From Enterobacteria phage mEp460: 44,510 nucleotides of DNA. The stretch is from sequence record NC_019716.1; one strand, 5' to 3'. Below the pieces are notes generated by a model, which saw only the letters and a list, made by a program, of their open reading frames with translations, ran no database searches and was not told where the DNA came from. Shown one piece after another: positions 29,530-38,963 of this stretch. Within the stretch, counting starts at the first letter, position 1. The number at the start of each line of letters is the position of its first letter. The translations under genes and the position numbers were made by a program.

Positions 29530-30354
29530 TCAGGCGGTGAAAGTACCAATAAAGGTTTCTACTTTGCTGTCTTTGAATTTCTCAACAAGCAGATCACGAA
29601 ATTCGTTAGCCATATCTTCCTGCACCGCTTCCAGCTGAATAATGCGCAGAACCAGTACAGGACGATCGCCAGTGATAATGCTGAGGCGTAATTTAAACGG
29701 ACGTTCTTTCAGACCTTCAAACGGAACGCATTTAAATTCAAATGCCACTGGCATAATGTCTTTGGTCTTCGCTTCGACAGATTCCATCAGGGAGCGTTTG
29801 CCGCTGAAGTCATTATCTTCAAAATCAGCGGTCTGGTTTGCTTCAATCGTGATTTTACGGACTGCCGCAGCCGCTTTTGTTGCCTGAATAGCGTCACCAT
29901 TAGCATCAAAGCCCACAAGGTAGTCGGCCCAGTCTTCAATCCATTCTGCCAGTGACTTCTGGGAGTTACGCTCGCCGTTAACAGACAACAGGGCAGAGAA
30001 CGGTGCTGTCTTTTTCAGTTTGAGAGTGGCGGTGTTATCTGCGTGACCTGGTTCATCAATAGTACCCAGGTTAAGTACACTGACGGCACGCATATTATCA
30101 GCATCGATAAAGCAGCGGGTGCCTTCATCTGCAAGATCTTTAGAATAACGGGTAAAGTCATCGATGTTGGCAGTGGAAAGCGCACCACGGAAACGGAAGC
30201 GATTTAAATTAAATTTTTCCAGATCATGAATGCGGAAATTCTCAGGCAATGCCACAGCATCGGCACCAATCTTACTGATAATTTCATTAACACCCTGAGC
30301 AGAAATAAGGGCATGGATTTGATTAATTGCGGTTGCGTCTAAGTTCTGAGACAT
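29530..30354 (-). CDS. YfdQ-like protein (DUF2303)
   Basis: 274 aa, length and composition matching CPS-53-type YfdQ family as recalled; function unknown. Confidence 0.5.
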
Positions 30355-30419
30355 AATAAGTCCTCACTATATAAAGATATTCAGTGATGAGATAAATAAT
30401 CAGTTAATTAAGAACGATA

Positions 30420-30782
30420 TTAATGACCTGCTGCGCGTAGTTTTCCGTCAGGTTCACCGGCAAGAGTCAGTAATTGTCCCTGGTCTTCCTGCAGAATAGT
30501 CAGGCGACCACCGCGATTGACATACATCGGCGTTTCGGTGGTGTCTTCTTCGGAAATTTTCCCGCGGTTAGTCGGGCGAACATATGAGAGTTTGTGTTTG
30601 ATTTTCACACGGTTCTCATCAAATGGTTCGATTTCCAGGTTGAGTGAGACCTTACCTTTGGTTTTCGTGTTCATCACACCTGAAGCGACTTCACTGAGAA
30701 CTGCGCCGATTTTGGTTTCAAATACGCCGCCGTCCAGCTCCCCGATAAATGCCTGCACATCAGTACTGCGTTCGCTAGCCAT
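30420..30782 (-). CDS. YfdP-like hypothetical protein (120 aa)
   Basis: Start at MASERS with GAGGAG SD; the 182-aa track ORF extends through a hairpin-rich region and is unlikely. Confidence 0.5.
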   Translation of the reverse strand: MASERSTDVQAFIGELDGGVFETKIGAVLSEVASGVMNTKTKGKVSLNLEIEPFDENRVKIKHKLSYVRPTNRGKISEEDTTETPMYVNRGGRLTILQEDQGQLLTLAGEPDGKLRAAGH

Positions 30783-31410
30783 TTTGCTGCTCCTCATCAT
30801 ATCGACCCTGCAAGGTCGGTTGGTTTCTCCACAAAACAGAGAAGAACACCTGCGGTGGCAGCCGCCCGGATGGATTGGGTTATGAGCCCGTCGTCCGGTG
30901 ATGCTCTTCTCTGTTTTGTAAAAAGAGCGGTACCAGCCGGAAGCAAGTGTACAAACTGGTACCGCCAAAGCAGTGGCTGTTGTGGTGACCGGTGCTGATC
31001 TCCGGCTTGCGGTTATTTCAGACTCTCACGGGCGTTTAATTGCCCCGCCGAACAGCTCTTTTCCGCAATAGCTGCAATGTCTTTCGCGCATCAGCCTGCG
31101 CATTCACCACAACGCTGAGAGCACTTAGCCAGTTACGGCACCACACTTTGTCGCGGCTCCATAAATGCCCTCATCGTTGCACCCTGGTCTCTTCCCAGGC
31201 GTCAAACCGAATCGCCACGCTGGTTAGGCGTCTTATCAGCATCATCATTGACTTGCACATTCCGGCTACCTGGTTTGTTTGCCCGAGCAAGGAGTGGATT
31301 GTCCCCTTTAACGTCCCCAGACCGCTAACGACGCATGTGCCATACGCCGTGTTACAACCAAATTTTGTTAGTACCTTGTTTGTAGGTCTGGAAAGAAAGA
31401 TAAAATGAAG

Positions 31411-31449
31411 TTGCGCATTATGCAAGTGTTTTTATTGCGAGATATGCAA
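31411..31449. promoter_or_regulatory. Putative OL operators: two 15-bp TTGCG-N5-NGCAA sites, 9 bp apart
   Basis: TTGCGCATTATGCAA and TTGCGAGATATGCAA just downstream of the cI 3' end. Confidence 0.5.
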
Positions 31450-31463
31450 TTTGGTGGGTAATG

Positions 31464-31483
31464 AAAAGCCACCTTCTGGTGGC
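31464..31483 (-). terminator. Intrinsic terminator after cI
   Basis: GCCACC-AGAA-GGTGGC hairpin followed by TTTT on the minus strand, 23 nt past the cI stop. Confidence 0.55.
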
Positions 31484-31505
31484 TAATTGATGTTGAGGTA
31501 GGGGG

Positions 31506-32198
31506 TTAATTGTGTCGCTTAAGGGTTTGTGACTGACTGATTAAGACCTTTCCAAAGACCATAAACCGATGTTCGTTTTCGCTGGTAATTCCCCATTCGC
31601 GGTAAATCTGATTATCAGAAATTACCAGCAGTTTATCAGGTATCATTTGCAGTCGTTTGACGTAAATTTTATCATCAAAACCAAATACATATATACCATC
31701 CCCATCAAACTGATTGATACTGATATCAACGAAGATGAGATCTCCTGGCTCAATGGTTGGACACATACTGTCCCCACGAACGTTGATAACTTTAATGTGA
31801 TTGGCTGGTCGTCCGCCAAACATCGATACAGCATTATCAGTTCTGTATTCAATGGCATGAATCACATCAATGACATCACCGCCCTGGATAAGGCCATTTC
31901 CCGCACTGGCACTGACATCCAGCATTTCAATACGGAATACATCCTTCACCTGCGCAACATCCTCACTAATACTGTTTTTACATACAGTATTACTTTTGAC
32001 GTCTGAGGTAAAGAGATCAGCAATATCAACACCTAAGCTCCTGGCAATATTACTCAGGGCTTGTTCAGTGAATTGTTTCTGCTTACCTGTTTCCAGGCGC
32101 GAGATATTCGCCGCATCCACTCCTATTGCTTCAGCGAGATCGGCGATTTTCATGTTCTTCGCCTGGCGAAGTTGTCTGACTCGGTTTCCTATGTTCAT
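31506..32198 (-). CDS. cI: CI-type prophage repressor (HTH_XRE plus S24 LexA-like autopeptidase)
   Basis: N-terminal HTH (VRQLRQAKNMKIADLAEAIGV), C-terminal GDSM catalytic Ser and VKRL Lys motifs. Confidence 0.9.
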   Translation of the reverse strand: MNIGNRVRQLRQAKNMKIADLAEAIGVDAANISRLETGKQKQFTEQALSNIARSLGVDIADLFTSDVKSNTVCKNSISEDVAQVKDVFRIEMLDVSASAGNGLIQGGDVIDVIHAIEYRTDNAVSMFGGRPANHIKVINVRGDSMCPTIEPGDLIFVDISINQFDGDGIYVFGFDDKIYVKRLQMIPDKLLVISDNQIYREWGITSENEHRFMVFGKVLISQSQTLKRHN

Positions 32199-32295: not shown

Positions 32296-32556
32296 ATGCA
32301 ATCACCATTACGAAATGTGCGTAAGGCGCACGGATTTACTTTGCAGCATGTTGCTGCGGGCGTTCAGGTCAATCCAGCGACGCTGAGTCGTATTGAAAGA
32401 CTGGAACAAATTCCATCTATCGATCTTGCAGAACGTCTGGCCAATTTTTTTAAGGGTGAAATCAGCGAAATGCAGATTCTTTATCCGGCACGTTTTCAAT
32501 CTAGCCAAAACCAGAATGGGTTTAAACCACAGGAACAGGAGGTAAGCCGTGGGTAA
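32296..32556 (+). CDS. cro: Cro-like HTH repressor
   Basis: 86 aa, HTH_XRE (RKAHGFTLQHVAAGVQVNPATLSRIE), divergent from cI across the operator region. Confidence 0.8.
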   Translation: MQSPLRNVRKAHGFTLQHVAAGVQVNPATLSRIERLEQIPSIDLAERLANFFKGEISEMQILYPARFQSSQNQNGFKPQEQEVSRG

Positions 32557-33100
32557 GCATCACTGGAAAGTGGAAAAACAACCTGAGTGGTACGTGAAAG
32601 CTGTCAGAAAAACTATCGCGGCATTGCCTGGGGGTTACGCTGAAGCTGCTGACTGGCTGGATGTAACAGAGAACGCTTTATTCAACCGCCTTCGTGCAGA
32701 TGGCGATCAGATTTTCCCGCTGGGATGGGCAATGGTTTTACAGCGCGCGGCTGGCACTCACTACATTGCGGATGCTGTCGCACAGTCTGCCGGTGGGGTG
32801 TTCGTATCGCTTCCTGAAATTGAGGAAGTAGAGAACGCCGATATAAACCAGCGCCTGCTGGAAGTCATCGAACAGATCGGGAATTACTCAAAGCAGATTC
32901 GTTCGGCAATCGAAGATGGGGTCGTGGAGCCACACGAGCAGACAGCAATTAATGATGAGTTGTATCTGTCAATTTCGAAGCTCCAGGAGCATGCAGCACT
33001 GGTCTACAAAATCTTCTGCGCTCCAGAAAAGAGTGACGCCCGCGAGTGTGCAGCTCCGGGCGTCGTGGCGTTTTGTGTCTGTGGAGAAACTAACGCATGA
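32549..33100 (+). CDS. YdaT-family / CII-position regulatory protein, putative
   Basis: 183 aa immediately after cro with overlapping start; family assignment from recalled sequence pattern. Confidence 0.5.
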   Translation: MGKHHWKVEKQPEWYVKAVRKTIAALPGGYAEAADWLDVTENALFNRLRADGDQIFPLGWAMVLQRAAGTHYIADAVAQSAGGVFVSLPEIEEVENADINQRLLEVIEQIGNYSKQIRSAIEDGVVEPHEQTAINDELYLSISKLQEHAALVYKIFCAPEKSDARECAAPGVVAFCVCGETNA

Positions 33101-33245
33101 ACAGTTTAACGGCAAATAACCGTTTGTCGCAACAGCTGGTGGTCAGTGTCGCTGAACACCTGTTGTTACGGCATGAATGCAGATTACCAAATCACTTGGC
33201 TGTAAGTAACCACAGAGAACTTTACCTGACTGTGGGGGGCGAGTT

Positions 33246-33425
33246 GTGCAGGAACTTAACCGCTGGTTTCGTGACGGAAGAGGGCTTTATGTCCATGTTA
33301 TTCGTTGGGAGCCAGAAACACAGCGCGTTATCTATCTTCGCAAAGACTACCCGCATGAGTGCTTTAGTCCTTTGTGGAAATTCAGGCGTGATTTTGTTGA
33401 GTGTGAAGGACCACCAGCACATTGA
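33246..33425 (+). CDS. Small hypothetical protein (59 aa, GTG start)
   Basis: Protein-like translation (...RWFRDGRGLYVHVIRWEPETQRVIYLRKDYPHECFSPLWKFRRDFVECEGPPAH); GGGGGCGAG SD-like upstream. Confidence 0.3.
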   Translation: MQELNRWFRDGRGLYVHVIRWEPETQRVIYLRKDYPHECFSPLWKFRRDFVECEGPPAH

Positions 33426-33510
33426 TTCTGCCATTCCGGGACGTTACACTGTTCAGGCACCTTATAAAGCGGGTGCCGGGCGTGGAAACCCGGAATTCAC
33501 CAAAGCGCAC

Positions 33511-33534
33511 AACCGCGCTCTTGCGGTTTTTTTG
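33511..33534 (+). terminator. Intrinsic terminator in the early-right operon (tR1-like)
   Basis: AACCGC-GCTCTT-GCGGTT hairpin followed by TTTTTTT. Confidence 0.6.
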
Positions 33535-33702
33535 TGTAATGAGCAGCATTACGCCCAAATTATGGTGGGGCGTGCAGGGCCAACTTCGGTTGGGCCGGGT
33601 TCTTTGGTGACCGGTATTTCCACCCCTGTACGTCTCACCACCAATAAGGTCGTGGAAAGCCTTGGTGGTGAGTTATTAAAAATCACCAAAGAGGCTGCCA
33701 TC

Positions 33703-34248
33703 ATGGCTACGATCCCAACCCTCACTCAACCTGAAATTGCCATCGTTGATGGTCAGGCTGTTACTTCATCCCTGGCTGTTGCCAACTTCTTCTCCAAACG
33801 TCATGACGATGTACTGAAAAAGATCCGCACGCTTGAATGCTCTGCATCATTCACTTCCCGCAATTTTTCGGTGAGTGATTACACCGATTGCACAGGCCGC
33901 AAACTACCTTGCTATCAAATAACCCGCGACGGCTTTGCGTTTCTTGCTATGGGTTTCACGGGTAAACGTGCTGCCCAGTTCAAAGAGGCATACATCAATG
34001 CCTTTAACCAGATGGAGAAACAGCTTTCAAATCCCTCTGTACTGAGCGACGTTGCACATAACGCCAGCGTTCTCTATTCCTACATTTCATCAATTCATCA
34101 GGTCTGGCTGCAGCAGCTTTATCCTATGTTGGCAAAAGCCGAATCTCCGCTGGCTGTTAGCTTGTATGACTATATTAATGATGCTTCGGCACTGGCCTGC
34201 CTCATAAATTTGTCGCTGAACCCTTCAGAGGTAAGGGGGCGCAAATGA
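33703..34248 (+). CDS. Rha-family phage regulatory protein
   Basis: 181 aa; AAAGAGG SD 8 nt upstream; Rha-type pattern (VDGQAVTSSL.VA..F.KRHDDVLKKI...YQITRDGFAFLAMGFTGKRAAQFKEAYINAF). Confidence 0.7.
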   Translation: MATIPTLTQPEIAIVDGQAVTSSLAVANFFSKRHDDVLKKIRTLECSASFTSRNFSVSDYTDCTGRKLPCYQITRDGFAFLAMGFTGKRAAQFKEAYINAFNQMEKQLSNPSVLSDVAHNASVLYSYISSIHQVWLQQLYPMLAKAESPLAVSLYDYINDASALACLINLSLNPSEVRGRK

Positions 34249-37967: not shown

Positions 37968-38963
37968 GTGACCGTGAGAGCACTACTGACCCCTGAAATT
38001 GCCCCGCGTATGGGGATCGTATTGTTCAGGCCAGGTTCAGAGCTGATGCCCCTGTTTATGCAGGGGCGTGTCCTGCTGGAGCCTGAGCCGGAGCGTTATT
38101 CATCTTTCGCCAGTGGTGCCGTTCCGGCGGCATCACAACCGCTGGCGGATGATCCTGCCGTTCGGGCCGTGTTCCGCAATGAGGCAGTGATCCGTCGTGC
38201 TGGTGGCGTGGAATGTCTTGAAAGCTGGTTACTTCGTGAAAAAGGCTGCCAGTGGCCTCATTCCGACTGGCACAGCGAGAACATGACCACAATGCGACAC
38301 GCTCCGGGTGCAATCCGTCTGTGCTGGCACTGCGATAACCAGCTGCGCGATCAGTTCACGGAACGGCTGGAATCAATGGCAACGGATAACTGTGCCCGCT
38401 GGGTGTTGTCTGTTGTGCGTCGGGATCTCGGTTTTGATGACAGTCACGTTGTGACAATGCCTGAACTGTGCTGGTGGCTGATTCGTAATGATCTGGCGGA
38501 TGCCTTACCGGAAAGTGCAGCCCGTAAGGCACTGAGATTACCGAAGCCTGTTGTGCCGTCTGTTACCCGGGAAAGTGACCTTGTGCCTTCGGTTCCTGCC
38601 ACCAGCATCATCCAGGATAAGGCGAAAAAGGTGCTGGCGCTGAAAGTGGATCCGGAGTCGCCGGAGTCTTTTATGTTACGCCCAAAACGTCGCCGCTGGG
38701 TTAATGAAAAGTACACGCGCTGGGTTAAGACACAGCCGTGTGCATGTTGTGGAAAGCCCGCTGATGATCCCCACCACCTGATAGGTCACGGTCAGGGTGG
38801 AATGGGAACAAAAGCGCATGACCTTTTTGTGTTGCCTTTGTGCAGAAAGCATCACGACGAGCTGCATGCGGATACCGTGGCATTTGAAGAGAAGTATGGC
38901 TCCCAGCTGGAGCTGATATTTCGTTTTATCGATCGTGCGCTGGCAATTGGCGTATTGGCGTAA
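37968..38963 (+). CDS. DUF968-type protein with C-terminal HNH/Zn-finger-like motif
   Basis: 331 aa (GTG start in track); C-terminal CACCGKPADDPHHL.GHG.GGMGTKAHD...PLCRKHHDELH cluster. Confidence 0.5.
   Translation: MTVRALLTPEIAPRMGIVLFRPGSELMPLFMQGRVLLEPEPERYSSFASGAVPAASQPLADDPAVRAVFRNEAVIRRAGGVECLESWLLREKGCQWPHSDWHSENMTTMRHAPGAIRLCWHCDNQLRDQFTERLESMATDNCARWVLSVVRRDLGFDDSHVVTMPELCWWLIRNDLADALPESAARKALRLPKPVVPSVTRESDLVPSVPATSIIQDKAKKVLALKVDPESPESFMLRPKRRRWVNEKYTRWVKTQPCACCGKPADDPHHLIGHGQGGMGTKAHDLFVLPLCRKHHDELHADTVAFEEKYGSQLELIFRFIDRALAIGVLA

Follow-up and report, generated by a model that had tools for sequence, protein, structure and literature searches.

How lambdoid phages that lack an N gene express their early-left operon is a question that concerns a group including ST64B, SfIV/SfII, cdtI, the Stx2c- and Stx2k-converting phages and CPS-53-like prophages. 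Enterobacteria phage mEp460 (NC_019716.1; the window analysed is the whole stretch of 44,510 nucleotides, nt) poses this question at positions 30,783 to 31,410, where about 630 nt lie between the putative OL operators with the proposed early-left promoter pL and yfdP, the first supported gene past them. A first-pass annotation of the sequence had described the gap as a hairpin-rich untranslated leader without a convincing open reading frame (ORF) or an Arg-rich N-like protein, and had suggested that a cis-acting RNA element replaces N and its nut site. The leader is a non-coding chain on the pL strand, composed in the order of transcription of module A, a linker hairpin, module B, an intrinsic terminator, module D and the ribosome-binding site (RBS) of yfdP (Table 1), and it holds three conserved structured-RNA families that are new in being absent from Rfam and from RefSeq annotation.

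On the transcribed strand the leader contains ORFs of 84, 49 and 36 amino acids (aa), none of which has a match in Pfam, and matches to PHROG families are confined to the DNA under module D, where they occur on both strands simultaneously, which points to ORF calling on conserved DNA. The copies found in other phages carry insertions and deletions whose lengths are not multiples of three, with module B ranging from 62 to 212 nt and the spacer of module D from 39 to 66 nt without keeping the frame. The missing family support, the PHROG hits on both strands and the indel lengths thus lead to the conclusion that the leader is non-coding. The gap devoid of a convincing ORF is thereby borne out and, with the ORF list and a scan for Arg-rich motifs added to the Pfam and PHROG searches, so is the absence of an N-like protein; as the scans were negative or artefactual, an N-like or other coding function was abandoned. 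The minus-strand transcript, on the other hand, folds with -246.2 kcal/mol versus -215.0 +/- 5.4 kcal/mol in 20 dinucleotide shuffles (z -5.75), in agreement with the predicted richness in hairpins, and the helices, on whose conservation in related phages the suggestion of an RNA element hung, are kept through compensatory changes.

Modules A and B, which are the largest elements of the leader, were absent from the first-pass annotation, as was a third perfect inverted repeat of 10 base pairs (bp; 30979-30988/31104-31113), which is helix P1 of module B. Module B is a three-helix RNA with a kissing interaction between the loops of P2 and P3, and P1, P2 and P3 of the window copy are predicted by RNAfold unaided. 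In the family, P1 is formed by GUUGUGGUG with CACCACAAC, P2 reads GCGCA-GGCUGA-UGCGC and P3, which abuts P1, reads GCCGG-AGAUCAGCA-CCGGC; the variable insert comprises 12 to more than 160 nt and is the cause of the wide range in total length. In an alignment of 49 distinct copies, for which the complementarity of P1 to P3 had partly served as an extraction filter, 94.5% of cells are paired and 15 of 24 pairs show double changes, with none of 500 shuffles as good and slid controls at 26-51%. The kissing helix, which was not used to select sequences, is 98.8% paired with three of its five pairs compensated, and a second scan with the P2 loop freed recovered the compensated kissing pairs GUCGA/UCGAC, UGCGA/UCGCA and GUUGA/UCAAC.

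Homologues were retrieved by exact patterns, such that each module count is a lower bound. The 25-nt core of module B is found at no fewer than 119 loci (at least 119) in IMG/VR with unrelated flanks on both sides, and the conserved 3' half AAGCCGGAGAUCAGCACCGGCCACCAC follows 12-160 nt from the core in about 90% of the module B loci listed. An exact copy of a 23-nt core is carried by 104 species-representative genomes, among which the outer P1 pairs covary; they include many Enterobacterales, other gamma-proteobacteria, the beta-proteobacteria Janthinobacterium, Pandoraea, Achromobacter and Comamonas, and some alpha-proteobacteria. In E. coli, 1773 of 5426 complete genomes carry the core, which is never annotated. 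No conserved protein partner adjoins module B at the 104 loci, where the largest neighbour family, a cI/LexA-like repressor located approximately 1.9 kb upstream on the same strand, is present in 11. The lack of a protein partner together with the exact core across alpha-, beta- and gamma-proteobacteria argues for a conserved host target. Real genes neighbouring module B are co-oriented with it, and tRNA genes, present at 22 of the 119 listed loci, are all on the same strand and never on the opposite one. Among 79 distinct contexts, 31 (39%) have the linker in front of module B, 19 are followed within about 45 nt by a terminator-like hairpin and 11 have an upstream -10 box about 7 nt before GUGGUG.

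Two side observations concern module B. The locus L420 is an array of clustered regularly interspaced short palindromic repeats, with a repeat of approximately TCTCTTGGCCGCCTACGCGGCGGTGAAC and 32-nt spacers, of which the spacer AGAAATTGGTGAATGCGCAGGCTGATGCGCG targets the invariant module B core. Three loci (L044, L189, L193) carry a second related RNA type that has GGUGAAU after P1 in common with module B and differs in P2 (e.g. CCCCCU-GAGCGG-AGGGG) and P3 (CCGGG-AGGCA-CCCGG), which suggests that both belong to a wider superfamily.

Module A begins about 35 nt past the proposed -10 box of pL and consists of UUUGGUUGUAAC-ACGGCGUAUGGCACAUGCGUCG, followed by GGUAGCCGGAAUGUGCAAG and by CCUGG-GAAGAGA-CCAGG-GUGCAAC. 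Its 19-mer GGTAGCCGGAATGTGCAAG is present in more than 119 viral contigs among the matches listed, with 110 distinct flank contexts, and the RNAalifold consensus of 16 diverse copies is a multi-helix fold with compensatory changes in six pairs, located in the first and last hairpins. The module stands directly after promoters at four loci (L150, L174, L165, L228); in P1 it comes behind tRNA-Ile, and a phiV10-like phage has it in front of tRNA-Arg. The linker family has the consensus ACAGGUAAGAGCAUU ... AGUGCUCUUUCCGUUGUG, varies at the apex (47 distinct inserts) and shows stem variants with compensated changes, its conserved base in front of module B being ACAGGUAAGAGCAUU ... AGUGCUCUUUCC-GUUGUG; the window linker is probably a diverged copy, two compensatory pairs off the consensus.

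These elements obey a common grammar, in that each cassette is flanked by GUUGUG on the 5' side and CACAAC on the 3' side, sequences that close the cassette into a helix, and the helices of neighbouring cassettes could alternate or stack. Cassettes are separated by linkers of the form CACAAC-A-stem ... stem-GUUGUG (30979-31362 in the window; also, e.g., at L013, L025, L030 and L074). The heptamer CACAACA is the published GcvB R1 target motif. Some prophages contain arrays of at least four different non-coding modules, including the unnamed AUCAGCCAUUCACGCUAAGCAUC... and CACAACAUGAAAGCGCAC...GUGCGCUUUCAGGUGUG.

The perfect 10-bp stem highlighted in the first-pass annotation (GCGGTACCAG/CTGGTACCGC) is real, with its arms displaced by 2 and 1 nt to 30927-30936/30956-30965, and as a hairpin of -21 kcal/mol followed by UCUUUUU it is an ordinary intrinsic terminator. 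The stem can be extended to 13 bp (-21.2 kcal/mol) and starts 16 nt after P1; at L054 and L107 an identical module B with the terminator hairpin follows a TTGACA-17-TACATT promoter. A riboswitch-style competition of P1 with this terminator was considered and dropped, as no convincing alternative pairing was seen. The 17/18-bp inverted repeat had been placed correctly; it lies inside 25-nt arms (30831-30855/30895-30919) that are 84% complementary and is the base of a three-way structure, module D.

The loop of module D is present in more than 119 viral contigs among the matches listed, in 94 distinct contexts, and a structure count over 24 copies gave 93.1% paired with double changes in seven pairs, versus 40-57% in slid controls. 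In 61 of 84 contexts module D lies between the U-tract of a terminator and GUGGAGAAAC, after which come a small hairpin and a start codon; in other contexts it comes after the 3' end of a tRNA. Within the loop, 14 consecutive nt (CGGGCTCATAACCC) are identical to the anticodon arm of the E. coli metZ tRNA-fMet; with CAT fixed in the search pattern, the constancy of the 'anticodon' may be a product of the search. The loop (30873-30891, minus strand) has CGGGCUCAUAACCC, which takes in the CAU anticodon and the three G-C pairs of metZ. No promoter was detected inside module D by eye or by a promoter scan, and no minus-strand promoter-like site downstream of the terminator, the sensitivity of the scan being low.

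A sensitive BLAST search against 50,697 phage records matched the leader in 175 records and revealed a mosaic, as its segments match different phage groups. The yfdP-proximal part matches SfIV, SfII and ST64B, the middle P1-like phages and IME207, and the promoter-proximal part phiV10-like phages and P1/P7. A core of about 45 nt has matches in a wide variety of phages (HK620, Taipeivirus, small siphoviruses, Edwardsiella and Erwinia phages). All annotated cases are non-coding and sense to local transcription. In P1 the match is located in the ban operon, between trnI and ban and under the antisense 'plp' ORF. O157 typing phage 10 has it immediately in front of tRNA-Arg, HK620 between qut and tR', and phiEt88 between Q and tRNA-Phe. 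In swi2 and IME207 it precedes tRNA genes by 100-200 nt, and in UPM2146 it precedes two tRNA genes by about 2.2 kb, in a 3.3-kb ORF-free stretch; pL-leader positions are found also in ST64B and SfIV. The typical positions are thus untranslated transcribed stretches, namely pL leaders, late leaders after Q, the beginning of tRNA units of virulent phages and the ban operon. As the cassettes reside beside tRNA genes, in late leaders, in the ban operon and in promoter-terminator units, they are not a dedicated pL device; from the proposal of a cis-acting element the conserved RNA structure stands, whereas the replacement of N/nut stays a conjecture.

In P1 (L003, NC_005856 69472-70041), plp and upl are antisense to module B and neighbouring cassettes, and plp in addition overlaps trnT; both are probably spurious ORFs, the translation of plp being implausible. 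In the Klebsiella Taipeivirus UPM 2146 (L430, 88006-91340), a virulent phage of 160 kb, the ORF-free stretch, which holds module B and has tRNA-Met and tRNA-Arg at its end on the same strand, may be a large island of non-coding RNA.

With respect to known RNA families, Rfam 15 identified only C4 and isrK in the window, both elsewhere, with nothing meaningful in 30300-31600 (gathering threshold and E<=10), and only tRNA, C4 and isrK at 10 related loci. ARAGORN found no tRNA or transfer-messenger RNA (tmRNA) gene in the window, nor did the Rfam models of the two match, and a tRNA or pseudo-tRNA reading was set aside; T-arm-like hairpins occur in the linker inserts of some other phages and not in that of the window. 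The order of helices and the junction lengths of module B recall a cloverleaf, with the insert in place of the anticodon arm as in tmRNA, but a T-loop and, in most copies, a CCA end are lacking. The purine-riboswitch type of junction likewise shares with module B the closing P1 and two hairpins joined by loop-loop pairing, but module B has no junction strand between P3 and P1, a variable insert at the place of the ligand pocket and no match in Rfam.

Among antitermination systems, a parallel in position is the put RNA of HK022, a lambdoid phage without N in which a structured RNA just past the early promoter and before the terminators acts in cis without a protein (PMC9378689). Module A similarly sits past the proposed pL and before a terminator in a phage without N. 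The put RNA, which suppresses termination through binding to the beta-prime zinc-binding domain of RNA polymerase, is, however, a two-stem RNA of about 70 nt restricted to few enteric phages, whereas the leader modules comprise 135-190 nt, have another architecture without a match in sequence or structure, and occur also far from early promoters. A covariance model (R1) built from seven put sequences, which scores HK022 putL with 96.3 bits and putR with 48 bits, reached at most 7.6 bits (E 2.7) in the window at 38111-38170, outside the leader, where no HK022-type put RNA was thus found.

The position in the pL leader also resembles that of lambda N/nut, and the linker consensus contains the core GCUCUUU of the rrn boxA followed by a hairpin; on the other hand, there is no N gene, with relatives encoding a Q-type late antiterminator and no annotated N, and the hairpin after the linker is P2 of a larger RNA rather than boxB. 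The boxA-like string reads UGCUCUUUCC in the consensus and UGCUCUCAGC in the window (31122-31113), with a GC-rich hairpin next to it. Tested against a single-stranded boxA (UGCUCUUUA or CGCUCUUA), the consensus linker has GCUCUUU and the window GCUCUCA on a base-paired helix strand, which varies to UUCUCUU, ACCCUUA and GCCCUCA with the partner strand changing to match. The boxA/nut reading of CAGUGCUCUUUCC before a GC hairpin was therefore dropped, the string being the 3' strand of the covarying linker helix, and no convincing nut site emerged from the search proposed in the first-pass annotation, a window-wide boxA scan yielding no boxA with a hairpin near pL or pR.

Other prophage RNAs offer partial likenesses. 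AgvB and AsxR are RNAs at conserved positions of lambdoid prophages that consist of a conserved and a variable part and carry CACAACA motifs (PMC4104026), but they are Hfq-bound RNAs of 51-60 nt from the late region on the convergent strand, are represented in Rfam and were not found here; they and the Pas small RNAs (sRNAs) are elements different from the leader modules. STnc1310 of the Salmonella prophage ST64B is the one related item that the literature search yielded, ST64B having the arrangement cI - long leader - yfdP/Q/R and module D in common with mEp460, but not modules A and B. GOLLD and ROOL are likewise phage-borne structured RNAs often located next to tRNA genes (PMC12286853), from which the leader modules differ in size, sequence and structure and by the absence of an Rfam match. 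A literature search with the exact module sequences retrieved nothing. The cutting of long leader helices to give mature phage mRNAs is a known device, exemplified by the RNase III sites of T7 and of the lambda N leader, and the length of the leader helices suggests that they could be cleaved likewise. The modules could be present, unnamed, among the 10,006 candidate viral structured RNAs of a published catalogue (PMC10690425).

A strong terminator between pL and yfdP in the absence of N and put demands some mechanism of read-through, and a cis-acting role in antitermination or processing therefore stays plausible, which leaves room for the suggested replacement of N/nut. Our preferred, if tentative, reading is that the leader works as a cis-acting RNA on the early-left transcript, through read-through and processing. 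The densely folded cassettes would offer Rho or RNase E little unfolded RNA over a 600-nt untranslated stretch, and module B, the promoter-proximal module A or both might act on the elongating polymerase or on a conserved host factor, upon which all or part of transcription would pass the terminator at 30965-30920, a job performed by N/nut in lambda and by put RNA in HK022. The helices of about 20 bp in the linker and module D would be cut, probably by RNase III, to free a yfdP mRNA with a defined 5' end and to release module B as a stable RNA of approximately 135-200 nt.

Several points weigh against a cis-acting leader. Read-through, cleavage and RNA stability in mEp460 are inferred from sequence, and the terminator may simply be leaky. 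At L042, L044 and L054 module B forms a promoter-RNA-terminator unit and looks like a free-standing sRNA gene rather than a cis regulator; it is also present in two phages whose late operon is served by Q, HK620 and phiEt88, the latter of which in addition carries, about 11 kb from module B, a putL-like sequence with 94% identity to HK022 putL over 71 nt. The hypervariable insert suggests a cargo or specificity domain, which an element that binds polymerase would not need. The complementarity filter behind the module B alignment counts here too, as does retrieval by exact patterns, by which sequence conservation appears overstated and diversity is under-sampled.

Possible as well, though we consider it less probable than action in cis, is that module B acts in trans as a stable RNA with its own terminator, an 'RNA moron' in which a nuclease-resistant scaffold presents the insert as antisense, sponge or decoy, such that the early-left genes are reached by leaky termination and no antitermination is involved. 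The contexts with a -10 box (11/79) or a terminator within 45 nt (19/79) and the absence of a conserved protein partner fit such a unit, as does a scaffold that stays constant around an insert of 12 to more than 160 nt, for which the conserved and variable parts of the prophage anti-sRNAs AgvB and AsxR are a precedent (PMC4104026). Yet in 39% of copies module B sits behind a linker within a longer transcript, many copies directly precede an RBS or a tRNA instead of a terminator, complementarity to a target was not identified, and conservation of the stem sequences across proteobacterial classes is unusual for a mere scaffold. The exact 23-nt core that prophages of alpha-, beta- and gamma-proteobacteria have in common, and its regular position at the start of tRNA units and operon leaders, would be explained if module B, possibly with module A, were a new widespread class of phage RNA acting on a conserved host machine without a phage protein, to which we give a smaller chance; a second, put-unrelated antiterminator directed at RNA polymerase or Rho and a self-cleaving ribozyme share this chance between them. 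Known small ribozymes cluster in prophage regions. Cleavage is also central to the unlikely case that the cassettes are maturation devices, with module B as self-cleaving ribozyme or nuclease guide and the helices of linker and module D as RNase III sites, which divide long phage transcripts that are not translated, such as tRNA arrays and leaders, into units. The regular same-strand association with tRNA genes, the helices of about 20 bp and a core conserved at the nucleotide level that tolerates peripheral insertions, as in small ribozymes, agree with this, but no Rfam ribozyme family matches, few conserved unpaired nucleotides are available for an active site and the stem sequences are themselves conserved.

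A role of the cassettes as tRNA mimics, which titrate nucleases or engage the tRNA-binding machinery, we regard as distinctly unlikely. Module D would be the look-alike of the initiator-tRNA anticodon, its nearly invariant loop identical to the metZ anticodon arm at 14 of 14 nt within covarying stems, and module B would be tRNA- or tmRNA-like in its helix order and junction lengths, with a 7-bp end helix, a connector, a 'D-like' arm, the insert and a 'T-like' arm abutting the end helix; phage tRNA genes co-occur, often with a CAU anticodon. VapC-type toxins cut tRNA-fMet, which is the biology behind a decoy. Against this, neither ARAGORN nor the tRNA and tmRNA models of Rfam give a match, module B conforms to no T-loop or D-loop consensus and in most copies does not end in CCA, a loop-loop helix of five Watson-Crick pairs is unlike tRNA, and the fixed CAT of the search detracts from the 'anticodon' argument. 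Very improbable is an action of the sequences as DNA, with the GTTGTG ... CACAAC borders and linker stems as recombination linkers or cassette sites of a recombinase. The mosaic of pieces from different phage groups and the same short inverted sequences at every cassette are in line with this, and the borders bear what we take to be a loose resemblance to the integron core sites GTTRRRY/RYYYAAC, their order, GUUGUG 5' and CACAAC 3', being opposite to RYYYAAC ... GTTRRRY in attC. Such a role would account for the spread of cassettes but not for their conserved interior, the strict strand bias to transcription and tRNA genes or the compensatory changes in the loop-loop helix, meaningless in duplex DNA, and no recombinase or integrase family is conserved near module B (104 loci). 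Least credible of all is a known system in hiding, either a small N-like protein with nut or an HK022-type put RNA, even though the position immediately past OL/pL would suit it, a boxA-like string precedes a GC-rich hairpin and the 36-aa ORF (31036..31146) ends in RKRAVRRGN. This ORF spans module B with its non-triplet length variation and has no Pfam or PHROG family, no ORF in a plausible frame has an N-terminal Arg-rich motif, the boxA-like strand changes with its helix partner and the put model stays at or below 7.6 bits in the window, with no hit in the leader.

For the N-less phages the leader offers a concrete model, in which cassettes and terminator are defined and compensatory mutants can be designed, the covariation data specifying which mutants to build. 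Beyond mEp460, the module B family, a kissing-loop scaffold with a hypervariable insert, is carried by about a third of the complete E. coli genomes and by prophages across Proteobacteria, and the module D family adds an initiator-tRNA anticodon-arm look-alike. Where cassette DNA has been annotated, it is as spurious hypothetical proteins, e.g. plp/upl of P1 and orf40 of cdtI.

Table 1. Elements of the mEp460 early-left leader and adjacent features, in window coordinates.
Feature	Position	Strand	Sequence elements	Basis or remark
cI-like repressor	31506..32198	minus		lambdoid immunity region
cro-like gene	32296..32556	plus		immunity region; YmfL-like genes also present
Terminator after cI	31484-31467			
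OL operators and proposed pL, whole part	31411..31449	minus		
Operator 1	31449-31435	minus	TTGCATATCTCGCAA, TTGC-N7-GCAA	read from sequence
Operator 2	31425-31411	minus	TTGCATAATGCGCAA, TTGC-N7-GCAA	read from sequence
Proposed pL	-35 31425-31420; -10 31402-31397	minus	TTGCAT, 17-nt spacer, TATCTT	predicted start ~31390
Module A, ~185-nt structured RNA	31362->31176	minus		conservation, RNAalifold consensus
Linker hairpin 1	31175->31114	minus	GAUGAGGGCAUUU (31175-31163) with AAGUGCUCUCAGC (31126-31114), variable apex	
Module B, three-helix kissing-loop RNA	31113->30979	minus		inverted repeat, RNAfold, covariation
Module B, P1	31113-31104 with 30988-30979	minus		perfect 10-bp inverted repeat
Module B, joining strand	31104-31102	minus	AAU	
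Module B, P2	31101-31097 with 31090-31086; loop 31096-31091	minus	GCGCA with UGCGC; loop GGCUGA	
Module B, variable insert	31085-31007	minus		79 nt
Module B, P3	31006-31002 with 30992-30988; loop 31001-30993	minus	GCCGG with CCGGU; loop AGAUCAGCA	
Module B, loop-loop helix		minus	GCUGA with UCAGC	5 bp
Intrinsic terminator	30965->30920	minus	GCGGUACCAG (30965-30956) with CUGGUACCGC (30936-30927), UCUUUUU (30926-30920)	
Module D	30919->30831	minus		inverted repeat, loop conservation, covariation
Module D, outer stem	30919-30895 with 30855-30831	minus		~20 bp
Module D, arm 1	loop 30891-30873	minus	CCGGACG/CAUCCGG, 19-nt loop ACGGGCUCAUAACCCAAUC	
Module D, arm 2		minus	GCGG-CUGCCA-CCGC	
yfdP translation-initiation region	30783..30830	minus		sequence, fold, arrangement recurring after module D
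Sequence element of this region	30830-30823	minus	GGAGAAAC	
Small hairpin of this region	30818-30803	minus	CGACC-UUGCAG-GGUCG	
Shine-Dalgarno sequence	30795-30790	minus	GAGGAG	7 nt before yfdP ATG 30782
yfdP	30420..30782/30800	minus		first supported gene past leader; yfdQ, yfdR further leftward, both minus

In the surroundings of the leader, the operator motif TTGC-N7-GCAA can be read also between cI and cro, and TTGCAT-17-TATCTT is presumably the pL of the early-left operon, though a simple promoter scan of low sensitivity did not flag it. For yfdP there are two in-frame start candidates, ATG 30800, which is used in the annotation of phiSTEC1575, and ATG 30782. The frame stays open for 62 codons further upstream through module D and the terminator, and over-long coding-sequence calls such as SfIV_34 result from this. 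On the plus strand, the isrK (33457-33533) and C4 antisense RNA (33558-33645) matches of Rfam fall within an ORF of 383 aa (33097..34248) that is annotated in relatives as 'peptidase' or 'putative antirepressor' and whose N-terminal part is probably non-coding. The locus looks like a C4-controlled antirepressor operon of the P1/P7 type in a lambdoid phage, and the pair of isrK and C4 is also carried by phage cdtI.

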